64,000 nt of DNA from positions 71,939 through 135,938 of the forward strand of contig CAMYLV010000008.1 in the NCBI GenBank assembly GCA_947259495.1, in the 5' to 3' direction. The first letter of the stretch is position 1. Every line of letters starts with the position of its first letter. Positions 3,064 to 57,898 of this stretch are shown piece by piece. The stretch is from an uncultured Desulfobacterales bacterium. Its GTDB lineage: Bacteria > Desulfobacterota > Desulfobacteria > Desulfobacterales > JAHEIW01. A program made the translations under genes and the position numbers. The notes under the pieces were generated by a model. It searched no databases. It saw nothing but the letters and a program-made list of their open reading frames with translations, and was not told the origin of the DNA.

Positions 3064-4209
3064 TCAACGCTCAGAATAAAGCAGCTCCCCCTCTCCATAG
3101 ACTGCTACCGGATAACGGGTCAGATCAAAAGGGTCCCCATTCCAGCAAACAAACGAGGCCCATTTGCCTTTCTCCAGAGTGCCGATTTGAGCGTCGACAC
3201 CGAGAATTTGGGCGTTGCGGCGTGAAATTAATTCAATGGCCTGTTGCCTGGATAAACCGGCGCGCATAAACCAGCGTGTTTGCAACAATAGCTGACGCGC
3301 CAGGGTTACCGGATGATCGGTCATGAGGCCAAATTCCACCCCGGATGCCAACAGATAGCGCACATTACGCCAATCCTCGTGCTTCAGTTCAACCTTGTAG
3401 GCAAAAGAGTCAATCGGGCCGTAAACAACCGGAATTTTGCGCTTTTTCAATTCCCGAAAAATATCCGGTCGGTGGACATCACCGGCGTGATCGACCGTAA
3501 TATCAATTTTAAATTCATCAACCAGCCGCAAAAGCGCTGCAATATCATCGATTTTGTGAACGTGACCGCGCAGACGCAGTTTACGCCCCAGTAAATCCCG
3601 CAGCACCCTGTCCTCGGCTGAAAAGACAATGTCTTGCTTTTTGCTGCCCTTGGCCTGGTTGTATTTTCGTATTTTTTGTCGCACCTCATCCAGGCGGCTG
3701 CGCAGCATGGCAACAGCTCCCATGCGGGTCGTGGGACGGTTACCTTTCCAGGCGTTTGTTTTCATGGGGTTAAATCCAAACGCAGCCTTTAGACCGGCGC
3801 GGGCGATCAGGGCGTCGGTGCTGGACCCGGCATAATTGCGGATGACCGCTGAATGACCACCGATAATATTACCGCTGCCGGGCAGCACACACGAGTACAA
3901 CACGCCCATTTGGACCGCATCTTTTAGTGACTTGTCATCCATTTGAATTGAATCCAGCGCATCGGTCAGTGTCAGAATCGAATCCTGATGTTCGTTGGCC
4001 TCTCCTTCGGTATTGGGCTCCCCGGCCCGTTCCATGCCGATGTGGCTGTGTGGATCGACAAAGGCAGGTGTCAGCACCTCATATTTTCCCAGGCAGCGGC
4101 CTTTCTTTGTTTTAGAAATGGCGCTGATTTTTTTACCACCAAATAAGAGGTGCGCATCCGAAACGATTTTTTTCCCGGTATAGATTTTATCAGCGGAGAT
4201 GAAATTCAT
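3064..4209 (-). CDS. amidohydrolase family metallo-hydrolase
   Basis: 381 aa with an N-terminal FVDPHSHIGM metal-binding HxH motif and C-terminal TDHP. Confidence 0.8.
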   Translation of the reverse strand: MNFISADKIYTGKKIVSDAHLLFGGKKISAISKTKKGRCLGKYEVLTPAFVDPHSHIGMERAGEPNTEGEANEHQDSILTLTDALDSIQMDDKSLKDAVQMGVLYSCVLPGSGNIIGGHSAVIRNYAGSSTDALIARAGLKAAFGFNPMKTNAWKGNRPTTRMGAVAMLRSRLDEVRQKIRKYNQAKGSKKQDIVFSAEDRVLRDLLGRKLRLRGHVHKIDDIAALLRLVDEFKIDITVDHAGDVHRPDIFRELKKRKIPVVYGPIDSFAYKVELKHEDWRNVRYLLASGVEFGLMTDHPVTLARQLLLQTRWFMRAGLSRQQAIELISRRNAQILGVDAQIGTLEKGKWASFVCWNGDPFDLTRYPVAVYGEGELLYSER

Positions 4210-8714: not shown

Positions 8715-8811
8715 TCGTCATTGTTTTGATTTGTAAACAAAGAACTTAAGGCGGGTTCTAACAAAATATGGTACAATTACGACTATCTTAAAATGCATTA
8801 AAGGTTCATAA

Positions 8812-8916
8812 GTTGAGCCCGTTGCCCGTTAGCCTGTTTGCCGGTTAAAAAATAAAATCAGGCATTTTTGCGATTTCAACGGGCTCAGCCGGCTCAACTG
8901 GCTAAACCGGCCAAAC
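8812..8916 (+). repeat. flavoured-hairpin element copy A (GCCCGTT / AACGGGC arms, gene-less)
   Basis: Left array GTTGAGCCCGTTGCCCGTTAGCCTGTTTGCCGGTT, core AAAAAATAAAATCAGGCATTTTTGCGATTT, right array CAACGGGCTCAGCCGGCTCAACTGGCTAAACCGGCCAAAC. It ends 7 nt before the ABC ATPase ATG. Confidence 0.75.
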
Positions 8917-8923
8917 TTAAAAA

Positions 8924-11374: not shown

Positions 11375-11403
11375 TTGACAGCCATAATGTATACGTTTAT
11401 ATT
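11375..11403 (+). promoter_or_regulatory. candidate sigma70 promoter for the 4HB-remnant/lexA transcription unit
   Basis: TTGACA (11375-11380), a 17-nt spacer, then TATATT (11398-11403). The spacer contains the near-palindrome AATGTATACGTT. Confidence 0.5.
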
Positions 11404-11422
11404 TACATTAATATTTACATTA
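11399..11422 (+). promoter_or_regulatory. exact tandem 12-mer ATATTTACATTA x2 overlapping the -10/+1 region (possible operator)
   Basis: Read directly: ATATTTACATTAATATTTACATTA immediately at and after the -10 hexamer. Confidence 0.35.
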
Positions 11423-11428
11423 TTCTCT

Positions 11429-11708
11429 GGTTTACCGTTCAAAGGTTCGGGGTTCAAAGATTAAAGACAAATCTGAACCGTTGCTTCGAAGATCCGAGGA
11501 GAAAAGGATGAAAATCGAACAATTTGACGACATTGAAGCCTGGCAATTGACCCGGAAGCTCACTCGCAAGGTCTATGAATTGACAAAAAAGCCCAAATTT
11601 GATCGCGACTTCGGCTTGAAGAGGCAAATTCAGGAGGCCGCCGGTTCATCCATGCACAATATTGCGGTAACCCTGAACGGTGAACCCTGAACCCTTGAAC
11701 CTGAAACC
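11429..11708 (+). repeat. flavoured-hairpin element copy B (GGTTCA / TGAACC arms) carrying an internally deleted four-helix-bundle gene
   Basis: Left array GGTTTACCGTTCAAAGGTTCGGGGTTCAAAG. Right array GTAACCCTGAACGGTGAACCCTGAACCCTTGAACCTGAAACC, whose first 27 nt are identical to the right arm of copy C. Confidence 0.8.
11508..11690 (+). pseudogene. truncated four-helix-bundle protein gene (23S rRNA IVS protein family), N-terminal 53 codons only
   Basis: MKIEQFDDIEAWQLTRKLTRKVYELTKKPKFDRDFGLKRQIQEAAGSSMHNIA, then the frame reads straight into the right repeat arm. By eye there are 15 mismatches over 160 nt versus 13339-13498. The roughly 210 bp present in copy C between ATTGCGG and TAACCC are absent. 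Confidence 0.8.
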
Positions 11709-11724
11709 GACGAAAGGAGGTTTC

Positions 11725-12357
11725 ATGAAAGTCCCGCTGACAGCCAAACAGCAGCGTGTTCTGGATTATCTTCAGCGCGAAATCGCCAAAACCGGTCTGT
11801 GCCCCAGCCTGCGCCAGGCTGCAGCGAATCTGGGGGTCAGCCATGCCGCTATCGCCCAGATCCTTCGTGTGCTGGAAGAAAAAGGCTATGTTAAGCGCGA
11901 GGGGCGTTACAGCCGCAACGTTTATTTGTTAAATCGCACGCGCCAGGCAGCGGCTTTGCAGCGCTGGCGCGAAATCCCGATTATCGGTCGTGTCACGGCC
12001 GGTCTACCGATGTACGCCCAGACGGAGTGGGACGGCAGCATCGTGCTGGATGCCGCCGTTTATCGCAGTCAAAACATCTTCGCCCTGCGCGTCAAGGGCG
12101 ATTCGATGAGAGATGCCGGCATCCTCAACGGCGACCTGGCGATCTGCGAACCGCGTCAGTACGCCCAAAATGGGGAAATCGTCGTGGTTCTCATTAACAG
12201 TGAAGAGGCCACTGTCAAACGCTTCTTTTTACGTGACGACCACATCGAGCTGCGTCCGGAAAATACCGACTACGCCCCCATGCGTTACGGCTTCGGCGAA
12301 GTGCTGGTTCAGGGCAAGATCATCGGCATCCACCGCGGCCCGGAAGAAATAAATTGA
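11725..12357 (+). CDS. lexA: LexA repressor (S24 peptidase)
   Basis: wHTH N-terminus (LTAKQQRVLDYLQREIAKTGLCPSLRQAA), catalytic GDSM and VKRF Lys motif. AAAGGAGG SD 5 nt upstream of the ATG at 11725. The track ORF start at 11680 lies inside the repeat arm. Confidence 0.9.
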   Translation: MKVPLTAKQQRVLDYLQREIAKTGLCPSLRQAAANLGVSHAAIAQILRVLEEKGYVKREGRYSRNVYLLNRTRQAAALQRWREIPIIGRVTAGLPMYAQTEWDGSIVLDAAVYRSQNIFALRVKGDSMRDAGILNGDLAICEPRQYAQNGEIVVVLINSEEATVKRFFLRDDHIELRPENTDYAPMRYGFGEVLVQGKIIGIHRGPEEIN

Positions 12358-12468
12358 GCACGCTGCGCATTTGAGGAGCGGTCCTCGGAACCTTTAGGAA
12401 CGCTCCTTCAGCCGGGCATGATGGCATTGCGCAAGCGTTAGCAGCATCCCTTGGCGTAGAAAACGAAA

Positions 12469-13293
12469 ATGCAAACCGAGCAAACAAAAAGCCCCTGCCG
12501 CCTGTGGGTCGGCACCAGCGGTTATTCGTATACAGAGTGGGTCAACGCCGGGTTTTACCCGCCGGGCACCCGATCGGGCCAGATGCTGCCGCTTTACGCC
12601 CGAACCTTTCCGATCACCGAACTGAACTTCACCTGGTATCAGATGCCGAAAGCCGCTGCCATCGAACGCATGCGCCGGCAGGCACCGCCCGGTTTTCGTT
12701 TTGCCGCCAAACTGACCCGCACCTTAACCCATGAGGTGGACCCCGACCAATGGCGGGGGCAGGCCTCTCAATACCGCGACGGCATGGCACCGCTGGTCCA
12801 GGCCCGGCAGCTGACAGCTGTTTTGCTGCAGTTTCCGCCGAGCTTTTCCCGGGCGCCGCAAAATCGCCGCTACCTGGCCGCCCTTCTGGACGAACTGGCC
12901 GGATTGCCCCTGGCGGTGGAATTTCGCCATGCCTCATGGGCCGCGGACCGGGTTTTTGCCGAACTGGAGCGCCGCCGCACCACCTTGGTGGCCGTGGATG
13001 AACCGGCTTTACCGGGCCTGTTTCCGCGACTCGATTTGGTCACCAATCCGGAGCTTTTCTATATTCGGTTTCACGGCCGCAACGCCAGAGGCTGGCGCTC
13101 GGGCAATATGCAAATGCAGTTCGACTACGACTACCGTGATGAAGAGCTGCGGGAATGGGCTGATAAAATCATCACACCGATGACCCGACAGGCCGGCAGC
13201 GGGACAATTTTTTTCAACAACCACGTCCGCGGCCAGGCACCCAAAAATGCCCGGCGTTTGATCAGCCAGTTAATTGAAGGAGGTCTTCTCTAG
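12469..13293 (+). CDS. DUF72 (YecE-like) family protein
   Basis: WVGTSGYSYTEWVNAGFYPPG N-terminus, FRFAAKL, AVLLQFPPSF and AVEFRHASW are typical DUF72 blocks. Confidence 0.85.
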   Translation: MQTEQTKSPCRLWVGTSGYSYTEWVNAGFYPPGTRSGQMLPLYARTFPITELNFTWYQMPKAAAIERMRRQAPPGFRFAAKLTRTLTHEVDPDQWRGQASQYRDGMAPLVQARQLTAVLLQFPPSFSRAPQNRRYLAALLDELAGLPLAVEFRHASWAADRVFAELERRRTTLVAVDEPALPGLFPRLDLVTNPELFYIRFHGRNARGWRSGNMQMQFDYDYRDEELREWADKIITPMTRQAGSGTIFFNNHVRGQAPKNARRLISQLIEGGLL

Positions 13294-13745
13294 GTTCAGA
13301 GGTTCCGGGTTCTGGGTTCAAAGGTTCTGAGGAAAAAAATGAAAATCGAACGATTTGAAGACATTGAGGCCTGGCAATTGGCCCGGGAGTTAACACGCAA
13401 GGTCTATGAATTGACAAAAAAGCCCCGGTTTGCGGGCGACTTCGGCTTGAAGAGACAAATTCAGGAGGCCGCCGGTTCATCCATGCACAATATTGCGGAA
13501 GGATTCGATTCGGAGACAAACCCGGAATTTATTCGTTTTCTTCGATATGCCAAGCGGTCTTGCACTGAAGTCCAGAGTGAGCTTTACGTGGCACTGGATC
13601 AGCAATACATAACAACTCAAGAGTTTCAGAATGTGTACGACCATGCCGGGCGTACCCGTGCTGCCATTCGAGGTTTCATTAAGTACTTGCTAGCTTATGA
13701 GCAAGGTAACCCTGAACGGTGAACCCTGAACCTATGAACCCTTAT
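13293..13745 (+). repeat. flavoured-hairpin element copy C (GGTTCA / TGAACC arms) with an intact four-helix-bundle gene; the reference full-length copy
   Basis: Left array GGTTCAGAGGTTCCGGGTTCTGGGTTCAAAGGTTCTGAGG (13293-13332). Right array GTAACCCTGAACGGTGAACCCTGAACCTATGAACCC (13706 onward). Together they bracket ORF 13339-13722. Confidence 0.85.
13339..13722 (+). CDS. four-helix-bundle protein (23S rRNA intervening-sequence protein family, PF05635/TIGR02436-like; Avd-like fold)
   Basis: 127 aa with FEDIEAWQLARELTRKVYELT...GLKRQIQEAAGSSMHNIAEGF...EFIRFLRYAKRSCTEVQSELYVALDQQYIT, the hallmark pattern of this family. Confidence 0.85.
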   Translation: MKIERFEDIEAWQLARELTRKVYELTKKPRFAGDFGLKRQIQEAAGSSMHNIAEGFDSETNPEFIRFLRYAKRSCTEVQSELYVALDQQYITTQEFQNVYDHAGRTRAAIRGFIKYLLAYEQGNPER

Positions 13746-14915
13746 AACCGTTCAATTATCCATTTAAACGTGGCTGATTTTGCCGTGGCGGTGGAAAGGG
13801 CGGTGGATCACCGGCTGCACGAACGTCCGGTGATCATCGCACCCGAAGGCGCCGTACGCGCCGCCGTTTATGACATGAGCAACGAGGCCTATATAACCGG
13901 CATCCGCAAGGGCATGGCCCTGCAGCGAGCCGTTCGCCTGTGTCAAGATGTCCGCATCCTGCCGCCCCACCCCCACCGCTACGAACAGGCCATGCGCGAT
14001 GTGCTCAAGCGCGCCCTGCCGTATTCACCCCTGATCGAAACCGGTGAAGACGACGGCCACCTGTTTATGGATGCCACCGGCACCGGCCGCCTTTTCGGGC
14101 CGCCCAGGGATGTGGCCTGGCGGTTGCGCCGGCAGATCAAAACCGACCTGGGCCTGGACCCGATCTGGTCGGTGGCACCCAACAAATTGGTGGCCAAAGT
14201 GGCCACCCGCCTGGTGAAACCCGATGGAGCGTACATCGTCTCGGCCGGCGAAGAAAGATCGCTGCTGGCCCCGCTGCCTGTCCGCCTGGTTCCAGGCATC
14301 GAGCGCGATGACCTGCTTCGGTTGCGGGAATTCAATTTGACGCATGCATTTCAGGTCGCGGCCCTGAGCCTGGAGCAGTTGGCGGTCCCTTTTGCCACCC
14401 GTGCCCGGCTGCTTTACGAGGCGGTGCGCGGCATCGATCCGTCTCCGGTTTTGCCGGTCGGGCAGAAACCGCCGCAGGTGATCGCCGATCACGAATTCGG
14501 CATCGACACCAACGATGTGCACACCCTGGAGAGCGTTCTCTACGGGCTGGTGGAGCAGGTTGGCAGCCGGCTGCGCCGACGCCGGCGAGTTGCCCGCCGC
14601 ATTGCCATTGTGCTCGACTATTCCGACGGCATGCGCCGCGCCCGCCAGGTGGCCGCCCGGCCGGCCACGGCCAATGACCTCACCCTCTTTGAACTGGCCC
14701 GGCGCGCACTGCAACTGGCCTGGATGCGGCGGGTGCGTATCCGCCACCTGCGCCTGATCGGCGCCCGGCTGGTCTTTCCGCCGGCCCAGTTAGAACTGTT
14801 TGCCGCCGATCAGAAAGCCGATGAAAAGCGATCCAGCCTGATCGGCGCCATCGACACCGTGCGCCACCGCTTCGGCCATGAGGCCTTGCGGTTCGGCCGC
14901 ACTTTAGCGGCCTAA
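13719..14915 (+). CDS. imuB: ImuB-like Y-family DNA polymerase homologue (catalytically inactive type)
   Basis: IIHLNVADFAVAVE aligns with the DinB motif IIHVDMDCFFAAVE, but both Asp residues are replaced. The SLDE position reads DDGH. Both candidate ATGs (13719, 13734) lie inside the right arm of element C, and the gene sits upstream of dnaE2. Confidence 0.8.
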   Translation: MNPEPMNPYNRSIIHLNVADFAVAVERAVDHRLHERPVIIAPEGAVRAAVYDMSNEAYITGIRKGMALQRAVRLCQDVRILPPHPHRYEQAMRDVLKRALPYSPLIETGEDDGHLFMDATGTGRLFGPPRDVAWRLRRQIKTDLGLDPIWSVAPNKLVAKVATRLVKPDGAYIVSAGEERSLLAPLPVRLVPGIERDDLLRLREFNLTHAFQVAALSLEQLAVPFATRARLLYEAVRGIDPSPVLPVGQKPPQVIADHEFGIDTNDVHTLESVLYGLVEQVGSRLRRRRRVARRIAIVLDYSDGMRRARQVAARPATANDLTLFELARRALQLAWMRRVRIRHLRLIGARLVFPPAQLELFAADQKADEKRSSLIGAIDTVRHRFGHEALRFGRTLAA

Positions 14916-14916
14916 C

Positions 14917-15212
14917 TGCCGGTTTGCCCGTTGCCGGTTTAGCCCGTTGGCCGGTTGATAATTGAACGAATAACCATCAGAACAAACTGTTGAACAAACG
15001 AATTTATTCGATTTTTAACATATTCGCGACGCTCTTGTTCTGAGGTACAAAATTGCCTGTATATTGCTTTGGACCAGAAGGACATCTCCCCAGAAGCGTT
15101 TCAAAGTACTTATGACCACTGTGCAAGGATCAGGAAAATAATTGATGGCCTAATCCGTTACTTGAAAAACCATCAACCCGGCTAACGGGCCAACGGGCTC
15201 AACCGGCTCAAC
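14917..15212 (+). repeat. flavoured-hairpin element copy D (GCCSGTT / AACSGGC arms) with a 5'-truncated four-helix-bundle gene fragment
   Basis: Left array CTGCCGGTTTGCCCGTTGCCGGTTTAGCCCGTTGGCCGGTTG starts 2 nt after the imuB stop. Right array CAACCCGGCTAACGGGCCAACGGGCTCAACCGGCTCAAC ends 6 nt before the dnaE2 ATG. Confidence 0.8.
14997..15185 (+). pseudogene. four-helix-bundle protein gene fragment (C-terminal half only)
   Basis: Hand translation NEFIRFLTYSRRSCSEVQNCLYIALDQKDISPEAFQSTYDHCARIRKIIDGLIRYLKNHQPG* aligns with residues ~62-124 of the 13339-13722 protein (roughly 60% identical by eye). An in-frame TGA lies just upstream and there is no start codon. Confidence 0.75.
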
Positions 15213-15218
15213 TTTGTT

Positions 15219-18200
15219 ATGATCCCATTAACCGTCCGATCCAACTACTCTTTCATGTGGGGCACAGCTTCGGTCAAACAGGTCTGCCGGGCAGCCCGAC
15301 GTCTGGGCTATACGCACCTGGCGCTGACCGACACCGACAACCTGTGCGGCCTGTGGCCCTTTTTAACCAGCTGTCGGCGCGAAGGACTGACACCCATTGT
15401 GGGGGCGGAGATCACCGACCCGCAGCGCAAGCAGCGGGCCGTCTGCCTAGTGGCCAATGATTCCGGCTACCGCAACCTCTGCCGCCTGTTGACCCGCCGC
15501 CACATGGACGATGATTTTAGTTTGGCGGCCGCTGTAAGCGCCCATGCAAATGGATTGGTGGTCCTTACCCAGAGCGCGGGCCTGCTCAGCGCCTGGCATG
15601 CTGACGGCGTTGCAGTTGCCGGCGCCCTGCCGCGTCGTCCTTTGCCCGCCACCCACCGACTGCGCCACACGGCCCGCCGCCTGGGCGTGTCGGTGGTAGC
15701 CACGCCAGGCAGTTTCTTTTTGCGTCCCGCAGACATGGCGGTGCATCGCATTTTGCGCGCCATCGCGCACAACACATCCCTGTCACGCCTGGCAGCCGAC
15801 GAAGTTGCCCCGGTAGATGCATGGCTGGCAGGCCCTCAAGAATATGAACGCCGCTTTGCCATCTGCCCGGAGGCAATCAGCGTCACTTACAAAATAGCCG
15901 AACGTCTGGATTTTAGCGGCCCGCAATTTGGCATTGTCATGCCGCCGCTGCTCGGTCAAAACGGCAGCAACCCGGCCGAGCGCCTGCGCGAGCAAGCTTA
16001 TGAAGGTGCGCGGCAGCGCTACGGCGATGAGCTTTCCGAGGCCGTGGTGGAGCGGCTGGAACACGAATTGCGCAGCATCACAGACATGGGATTTGCCGCA
16101 TATTTTTTAATCGTGCGCGGCATCATCCAGCGCAGCCCGCGCACCTGCGGCCGCGGCTCGGGCGCCGCTTCGCTGGTGGCTTACTGCCTGGGCATTACCA
16201 ATGTCTGTCCCCTGAAGCACAATTTGTATTTTGAGCGGTTCTTAAACCCGGGCCGCCAAGATCCGCCCGACATCGATGTGGATTTTGCCTGGGATGAACG
16301 CGATGCGGTCCTGGATTCGGTCCTGACCCAGTATCCGGGTCACGCCGCTATGGTGTCCAGCCACGTGCTGTTTCAACCGCGCATGGCGGTGCGCGAAGTG
16401 GCCAAGGTCTTCGGGCTGACCGATGCCGAAATCGGCCGGGTGTCCAAGCGGCTGCCCCAATTCTGGCGCGTGAAAGAATCCGACCCTCGATTTTTGGACG
16501 AACTACAGCAGCGTCCCGAATCCAAAGCGCTGGCGTTTCCCCCGCCCTGGCCCGACATTTTGCAGTTTGCCCAGCGCCTGATCGGCACCCCGCGCTATAT
16601 GTCGGTGCACCCCGGCGGCGTGGTGATCACGCCGCGGCCTATTGAAGAATACGTCCCTGTCGAGCGCGCCCCCAAAGGCGTGCCGATTATCCAGTGGGAA
16701 AAGGATGCCACCGAAGATGCCGGGCTGGTCAAAATTGATTTGCTGGGCAACCGCAGCCTGGGGGTCATTCGTGACGCCCTGGTCAACCTGCGCGACAACG
16801 GCACCGCCTTCGACGAGCTGCGCTGGGAACCCGAAGACGACTTTGCCACCCAGGAGGCTCTGGCCCAGGGTCGCACCATGGGCTGTTTTTATATCGAAAG
16901 CCCGGCCATGCGCCTGCTGCAGCAAAAGTCCAAAGTGGGCGATTTCGAACACCTGGTCATTCACAGCAGCATTATCCGCCCGGCTGCCAACGAATTTATC
17001 CAGGAATACATCCGCCGGCTGCACGGCGGCCGCTGGGACCCGATTCATCCTTTTTTGGCCGAAGTGCTCGCTGAAACCTTCGGCATCATGGTTTATCAGG
17101 AAGATGTCTCCCGCGCGGCAGTGGTTATCGCTGGCTTTTCGCATGCCGAAGCCGATACGCTGCGCAAAGTGCTGACCAAAAAGGATCGCGCGCATCAGCT
17201 GCGGGATTTTGAGCAACGCTTTTACACCGGCGCACGGCAGCACGGCGTATCCGCTGACAAAACCGCTGAAATCTGGGATATGATGATGAGCTTTAACGGC
17301 TATTCCTTCTGCAAACCCCACAGTGCTTCTTATGCCCGGGTATCCTTTCAGGCCGCCTATCTCAAGGTCCATTATCCGGCCGAATTTATGGCTGCGGTGA
17401 TCAGCAACCAGGGCGGCTTTTACGGCACCTTTGCCTACGTGTCCGAGGCCCGGCGCATGGGTCTGAAGGTGCTGCCGCCCAATGTCAGCTTAAGTGAGGT
17501 TCACTGGACCGGCGGGGCCGATACCATCCGGGTGGGGCTGCTGTCCGTCAAGGGCCTGGGCATCGACACCCGGGCGCGCATCGTTGCGCAGCGTCGCCGC
17601 CGGTCCTACGGTAGTCTGCGGGATTTTTTGGACCGCGTGCGCCCCGCGGAAGACGAGGCCCGCTCATTGATCAACTGCGGCGCCCTGGATGCCTTCAACT
17701 CCGGCGGCAACCGCGCAGCGCTGCGGTGGGAACTGGCCGGCTGGTTGAAATCAAAACGGCCGAAAGTGCCCAACCCCGCCCTGTTTGATGGTGCCAACCC
17801 TGGCGCCGATTGCCCGCCGCCGGCACTGCCCGCCGAAGATGAACGCGAACGACGGCGGCGTGAGTTTACGGTGCTGGACTTTCTGTGCGATCGTCACCCC
17901 ATGGAGCTGTTTGCCGGACAGTTGCAAAAACGACGCACCGTTAAAGCCGTGGACCTGCCGTGCTTTGTCGGCCGGCGGGTCACTCTGGCCGGCTGGCTGA
18001 TTACCGGCAAGGTGGTTTCCACCAAAAAGGGCGATCCCATGGAGTTTTTAACCTTTGAAGATGAAACCGGTATTGTAGAGACTACCTTTTTCCCGCAAGC
18101 CTACCGCCGTTTTTGCCACATCATCGATCGCCAGCGGCCCTATCTGCTTACCGGCAGGGTCGAAGCGGACTGGGGCGCGCTGACCCTTACAGTCGAAAAG

Positions 18201-18224
18201 GCCGAACAGTTGAAGTCCAGCTAA
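15219..18224 (+). CDS. dnaE2: error-prone DNA polymerase III alpha homologue DnaE2 (ImuC)
   Basis: 1001 aa with an N-terminal PHP domain (LTVRSNYSFMWGTAS), a pol III alpha core (PDIDVDF, GYSFCKPHSASYA) and a C-terminal OB fold. It follows imuB. Confidence 0.9.
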   Translation: MIPLTVRSNYSFMWGTASVKQVCRAARRLGYTHLALTDTDNLCGLWPFLTSCRREGLTPIVGAEITDPQRKQRAVCLVANDSGYRNLCRLLTRRHMDDDFSLAAAVSAHANGLVVLTQSAGLLSAWHADGVAVAGALPRRPLPATHRLRHTARRLGVSVVATPGSFFLRPADMAVHRILRAIAHNTSLSRLAADEVAPVDAWLAGPQEYERRFAICPEAISVTYKIAERLDFSGPQFGIVMPPLLGQNGSNPAERLREQAYEGARQRYGDELSEAVVERLEHELRSITDMGFAAYFLIVRGIIQRSPRTCGRGSGAASLVAYCLGITNVCPLKHNLYFERFLNPGRQDPPDIDVDFAWDERDAVLDSVLTQYPGHAAMVSSHVLFQPRMAVREVAKVFGLTDAEIGRVSKRLPQFWRVKESDPRFLDELQQRPESKALAFPPPWPDILQFAQRLIGTPRYMSVHPGGVVITPRPIEEYVPVERAPKGVPIIQWEKDATEDAGLVKIDLLGNRSLGVIRDALVNLRDNGTAFDELRWEPEDDFATQEALAQGRTMGCFYIESPAMRLLQQKSKVGDFEHLVIHSSIIRPAANEFIQEYIRRLHGGRWDPIHPFLAEVLAETFGIMVYQEDVSRAAVVIAGFSHAEADTLRKVLTKKDRAHQLRDFEQRFYTGARQHGVSADKTAEIWDMMMSFNGYSFCKPHSASYARVSFQAAYLKVHYPAEFMAAVISNQGGFYGTFAYVSEARRMGLKVLPPNVSLSEVHWTGGADTIRVGLLSVKGLGIDTRARIVAQRRRRSYGSLRDFLDRVRPAEDEARSLINCGALDAFNSGGNRAALRWELAGWLKSKRPKVPNPALFDGANPGADCPPPALPAEDERERRRREFTVLDFLCDRHPMELFAGQLQKRRTVKAVDLPCFVGRRVTLAGWLITGKVVSTKKGDPMEFLTFEDETGIVETTFFPQAYRRFCHIIDRQRPYLLTGRVEADWGALTLTVEKAEQLKSS

Positions 18225-37167: not shown

Positions 37168-37302
37168 GGTTCAAAGGTTCAGCGTTCAAAGGTTGTGAGG
37201 TTAGATTACAGACGACAGCTGTCAGAGATAAAATGAAACCGGACCGAATCACTGACGCTGAGCCCCAGAACTCCTGAACCTTGAACCTCTTAACCCTTAA
37301 CC
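37168..37302 (+). repeat. flavoured-hairpin element copy E (GGTTCA / TGAACC arms, gene-less)
   Basis: Left GGTTCAAAGGTTCAGCGTTCAAAGGTTGTGAGGTT. Core ...CAGAGATAAAATGAAACCGGACCG.... Right GAACTCCTGAACCTTGAACCTCTTAACCCTTAACC. Confidence 0.8.
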
Positions 37303-40274: not shown

Positions 40275-40280
40275 GATCTT

Positions 40281-40588
40281 GCTACTGGCCACTGGCCACT
40301 GGCGGTCGCAAGGAACTGCCCTACGCTCCGGTTTCATCTGTCATCAGTCTTCTGTGATCTAACCTCTGAACCTGCAAAACCACTCAAAGCCCTGCCAGAT
40401 TAGGCCGGAAAACGACAACTCAGTGCCCCAGGAAGACAACTCAGGCCGCAGGGCAGAAAGCAATCGTCTGTGTAAGTTGCATACCATTATTGAGCACCCG
40501 GCAGGGCGTATCGACAAGCTAACGGCCAACAGCCAGTAACCCGTAGCCAGGTTCAAGACGCCTGTAGCGAGAAGCCGGTAGCCAGTAA
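40281..40588. repeat. composite repeat region G (ACTGGCC / GCCAGT arms enclosing an inverted GGTTCA-type half element)
   Basis: Left GCTACTGGCCACTGGCCACTGGCGG. Right ...CAGCCAGTAACCCGTAGCCAGG...GCCGGTAGCCAGTAAA. The reverse complement of 40326-40376 (GGTTCAGAGGTTAGATCACAGAAGACTGATGACAGATGAAACCGGAGCG) parallels the core of copy E. Confidence 0.65.
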
Positions 40589-43148: not shown

Positions 43149-43523
43149 ATGTTTGAACTAAAAGTCGTAACGCGTTTTGCAGCTGCTCATCAGCTGACGA
43201 TGGTTGGATCAAAATGTGAAAATATGCACGGTCACAACTGGAAAGTCGAGGTCTATGTCACTGGAGAAAAGCTTGGTGCCGGCGGCGTGCTGGTGGATTT
43301 TGGGGCGATCAAGGCCCATCTGGCCGATGTAATCAAAAAATTGGATCACAAATTTTTAAACGAGCTCGATTATATCCCTGACGGAAAACCGTCATCGGAA
43401 AACATCGCCTATTTTGTGGCCACAGAGCTGCAGACCAAAATCGACGATTCAGCAGTCCAAGTTAGCCGGGTCACGGCCTGGGAATCCGACGACGCATGTG
43501 CAACTTATATCGTAAAAAGATGA
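43149..43523 (+). CDS. queD: 6-carboxy-5,6,7,8-tetrahydropterin synthase
   Basis: FAAAHQL...HGHNWKVEV and ESDDACATY, the PTPS/QueD pattern. ATG 43149. Confidence 0.8.
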   Translation: MFELKVVTRFAAAHQLTMVGSKCENMHGHNWKVEVYVTGEKLGAGGVLVDFGAIKAHLADVIKKLDHKFLNELDYIPDGKPSSENIAYFVATELQTKIDDSAVQVSRVTAWESDDACATYIVKR

Positions 43524-43612
43524 CAGGGAACAGAGATCAGAAGACAGATGCTAAGATTGAAAGATGGCGCACCTTATCTGACTTCTGTTTTCCGTCTTCT
43601 GTCATCTCTTTT
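43524..43612 (+). repeat. hairpin element H (CAGAAGAC / GTCTTCTG flavour) between convergent queD and pyrE
   Basis: ACAGAGATCAGAAGACAG ... CCGTCTTCTGTCATCTCT can pair. The left part resembles the AGATCACAGAAGAC...ACAGATG core of copies E/G. It probably also acts as a bidirectional terminator. Confidence 0.5.
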
Positions 43613-57737: not shown

Positions 57738-57790
57738 TATACAACATCAATTCTTTACTCGGTTCTTGGCAGTTCACCAACATAATCTTT

Positions 57791-57898
57791 CCGGTTTATC
57801 CCGTGCTCACAGGTTAGCCCGTTTGCCGGTCGACGATAAGAGATCAGATAATTTTTTTTAACGGGCTAACGGGCTCAGCGGGTTCAACGGGCCAACCG
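57791..57898 (-). repeat. flavoured-hairpin element copy I (GCCCGTT / AACGGGC arms, gene-less, inverted orientation)
   Basis: Plus strand: CCGGTTTATCCCGTGCTCACAGGTTAGCCCGTTTGCCGGTC ... TAACGGGCTAACGGGCTCAGCGGGTTCAACGGGCCAACCG. The reverse complement gives array, then AAAAAAAATTATC, then inverted array. Confidence 0.75.

Follow-up and report, generated by a model that had tools for sequence, protein, structure and literature searches.

PF05635 genes bracketed by inverted repeat arrays in the leader and spacers of a bacterial lexA–DUF72–imuB–dnaE2 operon

The Correia (NEMIS) elements of Neisseria are hairpin inverted repeats that lie near start codons and are co-transcribed, the mRNA being cut by RNase III; they end in defined terminal inverted repeats, are flanked by TA target duplications and carry no ORF. 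Cyanobacterial STRRs (short tandemly repeated repetitive sequences), which Mazel and colleagues reportedly described in 1990, are tandem intergenic heptamers of Nostoc, Anabaena and Calothrix; to our knowledge, their descriptions assign them no function and mention neither a cargo gene nor an arrangement in inverted pairs. We likewise know of no hairpin flanks around genes for Avd, the accessory protein of diversity-generating retroelements. In the 23S rRNA intervening sequence (IVS) of Coxiella, tandem GACAGAT heptamers lie in the stem before the S23p ORF in numbers that differ among strains, and the first repeat is the site of RNase III cleavage (PMC4990558). The Geobacter metallireducens arrays of classes 1–3 have been presented as 'putative global regulator binding sites' and read as IHF/HU sites (PMC2700814). 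Finally, Avd has a four-helix-bundle fold homologous to that of the IVS-encoded proteins (PMC10053308).

We analyzed a 64,000-nt stretch of DNA (the window) from an uncultured Desulfobacterales bacterium, in which an earlier note had described three hairpin-flanked cassettes in a lexA–imuB–dnaE2 SOS operon. One element of the family does lie directly 5' of each of lexA, imuB and dnaE2, and all three are PF05635-family cassettes (B, C and D) bracketed by inverted arms, one intact and two decayed. The three host genes were correctly named and the list was incomplete: the operon is lexA–DUF72–imuB–dnaE2, since a DUF72 gene sits between lexA and cassette C. Its features, in which IVP stands for the PF05635/TIGR02436 four-helix-bundle (23S rRNA IVS) protein, are as follows:
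11375–11403, + strand: sigma-70-like promoter (TTGACA, 17 nt, TATATT; 11/12 matches)
11399–11422, + strand: candidate LexA operator, ATATTTACATTA twice in tandem, a repeat that may serve as operator
11429–11461, + strand: cassette B left arm, GGTTCAN units
11508–11690, + strand: cassette B ORF, N-terminal PF05635 remnant of ~53–59 codons (38.4 bits, profile 2–47)
11666–11708, + strand: cassette B right arm, NTGAACC units
11725–12357, + strand: lexA, with its own AGGAGG Shine-Dalgarno sequence (TIGR00498, E 1.4e-48)
12358–12468, + strand: lexA–DUF72 spacer, weak GAGCGCT-type hairpin remnants
12469–13293, + strand: DUF72 gene, conserved operon member (PF01904, E 7.6e-60)
13293–13332, + strand: cassette C left arm, GGTTCAN units; overlaps the DUF72 stop codon by one base
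13339–13722, + strand: cassette C ORF, intact IVP gene with a GAGGA Shine-Dalgarno sequence
13705–13742, + strand: cassette C right arm, containing the IVP stop (13720–13722) and the imuB start (13734–13736)
13734–14915, + strand: imuB-like Y-family polymerase gene (PF00817, E 1.6e-29; PF11799, E 2.8e-15)
14917–14956, + strand: cassette D left arm, GCCCGTT/GCCGGTT units, 92% complementary
14997–15185, + strand: cassette D ORF, 5'-truncated PF05635, second subfamily (40.0 bits, profile 57–105)
15173–15212, + strand: cassette D right arm, AACGGGC/AACCGGC units
15219–18224, + strand: dnaE2-like error-prone polymerase gene (NF004225, E 4e-173; PF07733, E 8.7e-69)

Profile searches assigned every ORF of the 11.3–18.2 kb operon to lexA, DUF72, IVP, imuB or dnaE2, and imuA was absent from the matches. 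A diversity-generating retroelement was rejected on the same grounds, no reverse transcriptase gene being found among these ORFs. Wherever the contig of an ortholog covers this part of the operon, the DUF72 gene is found between lexA and imuB; the spacer that precedes it carries a 107-nt insertion in L001, a 99%-identical contig. The same promoter is found upstream of lexA at many orthologous loci, and the TTTACAT repeats at the promoter are kept in nearly all orthologs. Since the promoter lies upstream of cassette B, this cassette is located in the 5' leader.

All three translations exceed the curated cut-offs of the profiles that had been proposed for checking them (33.8 bits for PF05635, 24 bits for TIGR02436), with TIGR02436 scores of 94.7 bits for C, 34.0 for B and 43.5 for D. 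Copy C is intact, as claimed: its 127-residue product covers positions 1–104 of the 106 of PF05635 (99.7 bits, E 1.4e-28) and matches TIGR02436 with an E value of 3.7e-27, and its residues 7–101 resemble, by sequence match, chain A of PDB 2GSC (E 5.7e-10), the solved structure of family member XCC0516, which is a pentameric four-helix bundle. Copy B matches copy C with ~206 nt (C 13499–13704) taken out, which bears out the internal deletion ascribed to it; the ORF length given as 53 codons has to be amended to 60, because the frame runs into the right arm. B and C are 90% identical over 167 nt, their right arms 94% identical, and their proteins 80% identical over residues 1–59. Copy D, whose protein is 54% identical to that of C, is 5'-truncated as described: compared with the aligned intact relatives L115, L123, L140 and L141, ~60 codons at the start of the ORF are missing, together with the Shine-Dalgarno sequence. 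The arm-to-start distances hold as well, with ~17 nt for B, 6 nt for D and, for C, the imuB ATG (13734) inside the arm, 11 nt downstream of the cassette stop codon. Reading the sequence likewise confirmed that no Shine-Dalgarno motif precedes imuB or dnaE2. No internal + strand promoter was found within the cassettes, each element being a promoterless Avd-like PF05635 gene with its own Shine-Dalgarno sequence between two inverted arrays.

The hairpin arms are real, as had been stated, and are not simple inverted repeats: they are inverted arrays of tandem 7–9-nt units, with ~5 tandem heptamers per array, two inverted arrays per element and, in the three cassettes, units of the GGTTCAN or GCCCGTT/GCCGGTT types; on inspection, the arrays are not palindromic. 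Arm-only RNA folds contain 28–33 inter-arm base pairs (z −4.9 to −8.7 versus shuffles), and the closing stems also form in folds of the full elements, whose whole-element scores are modest (z −2.3 for B, −1.5 for C). Pairing occurs in blocks of 5–6 bp, with unpaired variable bases between them, a pattern for which an RNA stem is no better an explanation than a structure at the DNA level or a recurring motif bound by protein. Arm mismatches on the sense strand comprise 67 G:T and 84 A:C, together with 216 others; there is no G:U excess over A:C, and hence no RNA-specific wobble bias. Cassette B of L001 lacks one 8-nt unit in its right arm, showing that unit number varies between strains.

Cassette presence, whose comparison across orthologous operons had been named beforehand as a check, with uniformity as a refuting outcome, turned out to be highly polymorphic. 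In 80 orthologous operons the spacers span from a 4-nt gene overlap (−4) to 829 nt, and the same slots are intact, broken, scar-only or empty. An intact cassette occupies the cassette C slot in only 7 of ~55 operons; many operons have no cassette at all, with genes tightly overlapping in some. The decay inferred from the window alone could be followed as a series at slot B, from L085 (apparently intact, the contig covering only the C-terminal end and the right arm) through the window to L083 (~4% divergent), in which an empty hairpin has kept its left arm and lost its cargo. Many hairpins without an ORF are found in the orthologous spacers, some of them nested within the loops of others.

Other cargoes occupy the imuB–dnaE2 slot in relatives. 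A strain diverged by ~4% has there a cassette encoding a GxxExxY/PD-(D/E)XK nuclease (TIGR04256, E 1e-43) with CGCAGAG arrays on both sides, and L112 and L119 have a REP-associated transposase (RAYT; NF047646, E 1.2e-29) between CTGG arrays of period 7 rather than GGTTCA or GCCCGTT units. Neither gene occurs within the window, and the cassettes themselves encode no transposase or mobility enzyme. The cassette swap between ~4%-divergent strains has sharp edges at the flanking stop and start codons; no target-site duplication is recognisable between filled and empty sites, the repeat arrays obscuring the junctions. The elements have entered short spacers in sense orientation, and each occupies the whole interval between the preceding stop codon and the next start codon. 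The imuB start codon is the former last arm unit of cassette C, and the ImuB N-terminal extension MN[PAL]Y is present only in orthologs with an arm or an arm scar. Later, internal deletions reduce the elements to REP-like hairpins without an ORF, or the elements are lost or replaced.

The window contains five further hairpins of cassette-like build without an ORF:
8811–8917, + strand: D-type units, 7–8 nt 5' of an ABC ATPase gene start
37168–37302, + strand: C-type (GGTTCA) units, 24 nt 5' of a start codon
40277–40558, + strand: CTGGCCA units, the type that borders a RAYT gene in relatives
43514–43611, no strand assigned: GACAGRR units, between convergent genes
57790–57898, + strand: D-type units, 18 nt 5' of a start codon
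In L001, an unrelated CTCTGYG-unit sequence stands in place of the hairpin at 8811–8917.

The anatomy extends well beyond this operon. Flanking inverted repeats with z > 4 were found for 59 of 67 full-length relatives from many phyla; a stricter set (n=63) comprises 42 elements with arms of period 7, 20 of period 8 and one of period 9, the median arm being 35 nt long. Plasmids of Nostoc, Calothrix and Riemerella carry distant members with TAGGGAG, TAGGGTG, GGGAAAA or GGTTYAA arrays. Forty-three cassettes run parallel to both neighbors and 3 opposite to both, and 61 of 88 ORFs have a Shine-Dalgarno-like motif upstream. The cassette is not confined to SOS genes: 78 of 80 relatives of its subfamily lie outside SOS operons, beside unrelated genes. 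As for selection, the copy C gene has a dN/dS of 0.06–0.12 against orthologous copies, below that of the host genes, which indicates strong purifying selection; its dS follows that of the flanking genes, and vertical descent was traced to a dS of ~0.85. The elements are passed on vertically, with the protein kept under purifying selection meanwhile. A mere passenger, one of the options in the earlier note, fits poorly with such values. As a whole, the comparison places the cassettes in a widespread, rapidly turning over and little-described family of hairpin cassettes.

The best reading is that these are IVS-type hairpin cassettes that settle in operon spacers and decay into REP-like hairpins. 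That the three cassettes are of the same kind as the ORF-bearing 23S rRNA IVSs, placed in a leader and in intercistronic spacers, seems to us rather probable. By location they are not true 23S rRNA IVSs, a candidate we rejected: they lie between protein-coding genes, and Rfam revealed no rRNA in the window nor at any of the 40 closest loci examined (0/40), so that the tie to true IVSs consists of shared architecture and protein family. The earlier proposal of IVS-like elements outside rRNA keeps these two supports and loses its link to the SOS response, the other cargoes widening the set. In the host operon, which we take to be LexA-controlled, the lexA promoter would drive co-transcription of the cassettes, whose arms would form imperfect 28–33-bp stems within the mRNA. 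By analogy with rRNA IVSs, processing of these stems by RNase III is plausible, and would part the cistrons. Ribosomes translating the cassette C ORF through the right arm might open the stem and couple to initiation at imuB 11 nt on. The IVS protein would serve the element, with the repeat arrays as its probable binding sites, and the location in an SOS operon would reflect lineage-specific colonisation rather than a dedicated mutagenesis function. The lasting vertical persistence and strong purifying selection could reflect a host function instead.

The other cargoes, GxxExxY nuclease and RAYT, make a DNA-level, REP/REPIN-like nature a serious rival, since they share the cassette set. Here the arrays would be recognised as single-stranded DNA hairpins or protein-binding arrays, and the elements moved, excised and replaced by a trans-acting enzyme or by replication slippage across palindromes; the PF05635 gene would be one of several cargoes, and the RNA stem incidental or a REP-like mRNA stabiliser. 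The occupation of the same slot by genes with heptamer arms, the sharp-edged exchange, the nested hairpins, the varying unit number and the lack of strand-specific wobble bias in the arms all fit, and there are precedents in RAYT/REPIN systems (PMC3116915, PMC3337134) and in the intergenic paired inverted hepta- and octanucleotide arrays of G. metallireducens (PMC2700814). However, the window has neither enzyme gene, the arm units of PF05635 cassettes are unlike those of RAYT type, the arms have neither the GTAG/CGTC tag nor the single-palindrome form of classical REPs, and no target-site duplication is seen, the arrays obscuring the junctions. The 43:3 sense bias and the promoterless ORF with a Shine-Dalgarno sequence also point to a dependence on host transcription that a purely DNA-level element would not need, and we hold this alternative to be unlikely, if less so than the following two.

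A domesticated regulatory module, in which the four-helix-bundle protein binds the arrays in the mRNA or DNA of its own operon and tunes translation or stability of the downstream gene, for example delaying imuB and dnaE2 expression during the SOS response, would account for a dN/dS below that of host genes over long vertical descent, for an imuB start sequestered in an arm just past the cassette stop, and for window hairpins lying 0–24 nt 5' of start codons (that at 43514–43611, between convergent genes, excepted). It is quite improbable in view of the rarity of intact cassettes in the orthologous slot and the many operons devoid of any, the two broken copies out of three in the window, and the unrelated neighbors of the subfamily at 78 of 80 loci. 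The homology of Avd to PF05635 (PMC10053308), the missing imuA and the cassettes bordering imuB could also be taken to mean that the protein is an ImuB–DnaE2 mutasome subunit that replaces ImuA, just as Avd serves the error-prone reverse transcriptase in diversity-generating retroelements. Yet most orthologous operons do without a cassette, whereas DUF72 is always there, the window has two pseudogenes among its three copies, and the great majority of subfamily members lie outside SOS operons, making such a subunit highly improbable.

Compared with the described systems, IVS-type cassettes differ from Correia elements in having repeat arrays as arms, and no target duplication was seen. Judged from the description of STRRs, the Nostoc and Calothrix plasmid PF05635 genes bordered by inverted heptamer arrays resemble them. 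The G. metallireducens arrays are like the ORF-less hairpins of the window in having 3–5 tandem units per strand, ~100 bp apart, in intergenic regions; their unit sequences differ, and no link to PF05635 or to a cargo gene was made (PMC2700814). REP/REPIN–RAYT systems share with the cassettes the intergenic inverted-repeat hairpins, the vertical persistence and the abundance of ORF-less copies next to rarer ones that border a small gene, and a true RAYT with heptamer arrays sits in the same slot of L112 and L119. However, a REP is a single tagged palindrome, imperfect, of 20–40 nt and with a GTAG/CGTC end, whereas the cassette arms are tandem 7–9-nt arrays; no RAYT gene flanked by the cassettes' repeats was found, either in the window or in L112 and L119, whose arms are of CTGG type, and the cargo, instead of a Y1 transposase, is a non-catalytic-looking four-helix bundle, multicopy and strongly sense-oriented. 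The 23S rRNA IVSs of Leptospira, Coxiella, Xanthomonas and Brucella encode the same protein family as the cassettes (S23p/PF05635), likewise in sense orientation, between inverted repeats able to form a long stem around an ORF that tends to decay, with, in Coxiella, tandem heptamers of strain-variable copy number in the stem. In contrast to IVSs, the cassettes lie in mRNA leaders and intercistronic spacers instead of rRNA helices, and strong purifying selection acts on their ORF, which comes with a Shine-Dalgarno sequence; the S23p of Coxiella, by comparison, is thought not to be produced.

The cassettes lie in a single co-directional string of genes (11.3-18.2 kb of the window), which the earlier note had described as a lexA-imuB-dnaE2 cassette. 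The string itself stands, but a DUF72 gene had been omitted from it, the true order being lexA-DUF72-imuB-dnaE2:

Promoter and genes of the operon
11375-11403, + strand, near-consensus sigma-70-type promoter (11/12 matches)
11725-12357, + strand, lexA (TIGR00498, E 1.4e-48)
12469-13293, + strand, DUF72 gene (PF01904, E 7.6e-60)
13734-14915, + strand, imuB-like Y-family polymerase gene
15219-18224, + strand, dnaE2-like polymerase gene

Two copies of ATATTTACATTA follow the promoter (11399-11422), and TTTACAT direct repeats overlap or follow the lexA promoter in nearly all orthologous loci (L083-L160), which makes these repeats the clade's candidate LexA operator, unlike the classical CTGT-N8-ACAG LexA box though they are. 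The DUF72 gene, which encodes a TIM-barrel, YecE-like protein, is the conserved second gene of the operon in every ortholog whose contig covers the region (L083-L162), and imuA is not present in the operon; for these two reasons, DUF72 may serve this lineage as a stand-in accessory factor of the mutasome.

A profile search placed all three cassette ORFs in PF05635 (TIGR02436), the family of four-helix-bundle proteins named after 23S rRNA intervening sequences (IVSs), with scores above the curated cut-off, and bore out the state that had been ascribed to each copy. Copy C, which precedes imuB, is intact: its ORF (13339-13722) covers the whole profile (99.7 bits), and the protein matches the solved member XCC0516 (2GSC, E 5.7e-10). 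Copy B, before lexA, is internally deleted: 11508-11690 matches the N-terminal half of the profile and corresponds to copy C minus about 206 nt. Copy D, before dnaE2, is 5'-truncated: 14997-15185 matches the C-terminal half, and intact relatives extend further at the 5' end, by a ribosome-binding site and ~60 codons that D lacks. Copy D represents a second subfamily, 54% identical to C.

The arms that flank the cassettes had been taken for inverted repeats. They do pair in inverted orientation but are not simple repeats: they are inverted arrays of tandem 7-9-nt units (left GGTTCAN and right NTGAACC in B and C; left GCCCGTT/GCCGGTT and right the complements in D). Folding each arm pair around a tetraloop gave imperfect stems of 28-33 inter-arm pairs (z -4.9 to -8.7 versus shuffles), with longest unbroken helices of 6-13 bp, and the closing stem is retained in folds of the whole elements. 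The cassettes occupy their spacers fully: the left arm of C starts on the final base of the stop codon of DUF72, in its right arm lie the stop codon of the cassette (13720-13722) and the start codon of imuB (13734-13736), and the arms of D reach from 2 nt past the imuB stop codon to 6 nt short of the dnaE2 start codon. The earlier note was thus right to place the imuB ATG inside an arm and the right arm of D 6 nt from dnaE2. It was also right about translation signals, inspection of the sequence having located a Shine-Dalgarno motif before lexA and the cassette ORFs and none before imuB and dnaE2.

The position of the imuB ATG has a counterpart in the protein. The ImuB N-terminus reads M(N/E/RE)RSIIHLN in orthologs devoid of a GGTTCA-type element and MN[P/A/L]Y(N/E)RSIIH in orthologs that bear such an element or its scar, and in the latter the ATG belongs to the last right-arm unit, CTGAACCTATGAACC. 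Judging from this split and from the origin of the ATG, the element has given imuB its working start codon. The ATG lies 11 nt past the cassette stop codon and, in the predicted RNA fold, within the outermost helix; ribosomes ending the cassette ORF would open the stem and then re-initiate at imuB. For annotation, this means that such cassettes can provide host-gene start codons and split tightly coupled operons. Note that in three orthologs without the element (L096, L105 and L107) the native imuB start, ATGAACCGTTCA, contains an 11-nt palindrome, TGAACCGTTCA, identical to the right-arm core joined to the left-arm core; this palindrome may be a favoured target, or its presence may be fortuitous.

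Elsewhere in the window are five further hairpins, built alike but lacking an ORF:

ORF-less hairpins of the window
8811-8917, hairpin before an ABC ATPase gene
37168-37302, hairpin
40277-40558, hairpin with CTGG-type units
43514-43611, hairpin with GACAGRR units, between convergent genes
57790-57898, hairpin

Three of the five sit 7-24 nt upstream of start codons. CTGG-unit hairpins such as that at 40277-40558 also occur in three of the related loci (L087, L099 and L100), and the GACAGRR units at 43514-43611 are similar to the heptamers (GACAGAT) found in the 23S IVS of Coxiella.

We then compared the operon with its orthologs, a set of 80 imuB loci from a metagenome scan (64-98% protein identity). 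The lexA-DUF72-imuB-dnaE2 order is kept across them, with highly variable spacers whose extremes are a 4-nt overlap (ATGA) and a length of 829 nt: relatives clearly do not share identical spacers, and the proposed insertions are polymorphic. The DUF72-imuB slot holds a PF05635 gene that is intact in seven loci and fragmentary in six; in L112 its sole remnant is a 19-nt right-arm scar. The imuB-dnaE2 slot contains an intact D-type cassette in four loci (in two more, the D-type ORF is cut by the contig end), a truncated one in three, window counted, a GxxExxY/PD-(D/E)XK nuclease gene or fragment with CGCAGAG-unit arms in nine (TIGR04256, E 1e-43), and a REP-associated tyrosine transposase (RAYT) flanked by inverted period-7 CTGG-unit arrays in two (L112 and L119; NF047646, E 1.2e-29; spacer 796 nt); in several loci it measures 2-30 nt only, or the genes overlap. 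These nuclease cassettes, of the same design as the PF05635 ones, include those at 5183-5906 of L083 and in L084-086, L094, L116, L127 and L128. Many other ortholog spacers carry ORF-less hairpins made of CGAAATT, ATTGGTTTT, AGTGCCTAAA, GAGCGCTTCGCTTGAG or AGCTCAT units.

Cassette turnover is fast. Locus L083, which differs from the window by about 4% at the nucleotide level, has an empty hairpin with copy B's left arm in its leader and a nuclease cassette in place of copy D, the latter swap being delimited by the stop codon and the start codon on either side. Homologous recombination with a distant donor was rejected as the origin of the alternative cassette, since the alignment displayed no extended block of raised divergence beside the swap: the last 89 aligned nt upstream are 1.1% different and the first 57 nt of dnaE2 10.5%, after which divergence returns to the background of ~4%. 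Locus L085 has in slot B a cassette that appears intact, its contig holding only the C-terminal end and the right arm, with a right flank that matches the window; the series L085, window, L083 documents the erosion of a cassette down to a hairpin without ORF. Closer still, L001 (a 99% identical contig) is devoid of one 8-nt arm unit, and an unrelated CTCTGYG-unit sequence of similar length (348-485) replaces the hairpin found at window 8780-8922, before the ABC ATPase gene. Between lexA and DUF72, L001 also carries an additional insertion of 107 nt (3959-4059, versus window 12397-12404), bounded by an 8-bp direct duplication, GGAACGCT, and containing GAGCGCT-type repeats. This insertion is a different, MITE-like element, to which the duplication belongs; no target-site duplication was recognisable for the PF05635 cassettes. 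In the lexA leaders of L089, L091, L094, L097, L100 and L102, hairpins of one unit type are nested in the loops of GGTTCA-type hairpins, which suggests that the loops themselves are insertion targets. In L135, the lexA promoter is preceded by an array of CCTGAACC/TCGGAACC units exceeding 250 nt (at about 135-420 nt from lexA), as if the arm repeat had undergone a runaway expansion.

The family extends far beyond this operon. A search of 5.8 billion protein sequences returned 5813 matches, the best 120 of which are 83-95% identical and 125-147 aa long, with tails that vary because the ORF ends within the repeat array. A one-genome-per-species scan yielded 522 relatives; the best 80 (64-93% identical) come from Desulfobacterales and many other phyla, a breadth that suggests horizontal movement, part of the phylum spread among these 80 being possibly due to binning error. 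Flanking inverted repeats with z > 4 were found around 59 of 67 full-length copies. In a stricter set (n = 63), the arms have a period of 7 in 42 copies, of 8 in 20 and of 9 in one, with a median length of 35 nt, and their core is GGTTCA in 36. A regular-expression count in the fetched loci, biased by the choice of loci, gave 21 full, 7 fragmentary, 10 ORF-less paired and 68 unpaired GGTTCA arrays. More divergent proteins are associated with other units (AGTTCAC, GTTCTTG, GGGAACT, GTAACCCC), always mirrored in both arms, and distant members (27-43% identical) on Nostoc, Calothrix and Riemerella plasmids with inverted TAGGGAG, TAGGGTG, GGGAAAA and GGTTYAA arrays. The arrays on the cyanobacterial plasmids look like the classical short tandemly repeated repetitive (STRR) heptamers. 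The plasmid genes (L163-L166), from cultured organisms, are annotated 'four helix bundle' or 'S23 ribosomal protein', and the Nostoc edaphicum cassette lies antisense between two ribonucleotide reductase genes. In the Coxiella 23S IVS, three or four tandem GACAGAT heptamers are present in the stem before the S23p ORF (PMC4990558). The heptamer-array architecture thus spans the PF05635 family, rRNA copies included.

Only 2 of the best 80 of the 522 relatives lie in SOS operons (the two orthologous loci), and SOS specificity of the cassette was therefore rejected: the SOS setting is a lineage-specific colonisation, not a mutagenesis mechanism. An Avd-like subunit of the mutasome is likewise unlikely, because most orthologous operons are without the cassette. 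Rfam at the gathering threshold gave no match in the window and, in 40 related loci, no rRNA, the only matches being a tRNA, a tRNA-Sec and a riboswitch; a phage collection, searched for phage carriage, gave none.

Cassette genes display a marked sense bias: they have the orientation of both neighbours in 43 loci and are opposed to both in 3. A purine-rich, Shine-Dalgarno-like motif precedes 61 of 88 cassette ORFs, and a promoter scan of the + strand detected no promoter of the cassette gene's own. Orthologous copies in slot C diverge at synonymous sites (0.22-0.85) in step with lexA, DUF72 and imuB, and their dN/dS (0.06-0.12) is below that of the host genes (0.08-0.25). The cassette gene is therefore a long-standing resident and its protein matters, whereas Coxiella S23p has been regarded as not produced.

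The comparisons bear out the earlier note's observation, and its interpretation in part; the architecture of the cassettes, their family membership, sense bias, polymorphism, decay and selection are established by them. We favour a reading in which these are IVS-type hairpin cassettes, co-transcribed with the operon, whose arms would pair in RNA. We infer that the cassette is transcribed together with its host operon and folds in vivo, and that RNase III probably processes the stem, by analogy with rRNA IVSs; cleavage would part the cistrons and leave hairpin-protected ends. A mismatch test on the arms gave no support for pairing at the RNA level, yet is compatible with it (on the sense strand, 67 G:U-compatible versus 84 A:C mismatches, and 216 others). 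The arms pair as 5-6-bp blocks with unpaired variable bases between, a pattern equally expected of arrayed protein-binding sites or of a DNA hairpin. Spread at the DNA level, in the manner of REP/REPIN sequences, is a serious rival, since these slots can also be occupied, between arms of like design, by a true RAYT or a PD-(D/E)XK nuclease, and RAYTs and REPINs provide a precedent (PMC3116915, PMC3337134). The RNA and DNA readings are not exclusive: one bears on spread, the other on the consequences for the host mRNA.

A much broader proposal, which we regard as improbable, is that PF05635 proteins are the element-encoded recognition factor of pan-bacterial mobile hairpin cassettes, a class hitherto unrecognised and themselves the source of several repeat classes. 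The toroidal pentamer would bind arrays of about five heptamers, as RNA or single-stranded DNA, and promote copying, protection or insertion of the element beside start codons; rRNA IVSs, STRR heptamers, the Geobacter 'regulator sites' and many REP-like hairpins would be products of one system, with GxxExxY nucleases and RAYTs as alternative engines.

PF05635 genes outside rRNA are routinely annotated, and STRR heptamers are a long-standing unexplained repeat of cyanobacteria. To our knowledge, neither what the '23S rRNA IVS protein' family does (it comprises thousands of genes, relatives of Avd, a protein of diversity-generating retroelements) nor where rRNA IVSs originate has been explained since the early 1990s. 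Earlier work places members in cas operons (PMC3936711) and in insertions within the rRNA of CPR bacteria, and the homology to Avd has been recognised (PMC10053308); in Geobacter metallireducens, paired inverted hepta/octanucleotide arrays were catalogued as putative IHF/HU sites, with no gene linked to them (PMC2700814). The full-text literature searched, of incomplete coverage, did not describe any PF05635 gene outside rRNA as flanked by a hairpin or by heptamers (an older account in a subscription journal is possible) and included no paper tying IVS proteins, Geobacter arrays and STRRs together. The locus and its relatives suggest that the PF05635 protein travels as cargo of an inverted tandem-heptamer-array element, which would colonise operon spacers in sense, under purifying selection, and decay to ORF-less hairpins. 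If true, one source could explain the Geobacter heptanucleotide pairs, the REP-like hairpins of Desulfobacterales and probably the STRRs. The locus offers an unusually clear view of a widespread, under-described class of elements and of its protein family. Among the closest known systems are the ORF-bearing IVSs of 23S rRNA; strains of Coxiella differ in the number of heptamers in theirs, where RNase III cleavage falls at the first repeat (PMC4990558). The cassettes share the anatomy of rRNA IVSs but fail their defining location in rRNA, so that they are not classed as such; they may well work like them.
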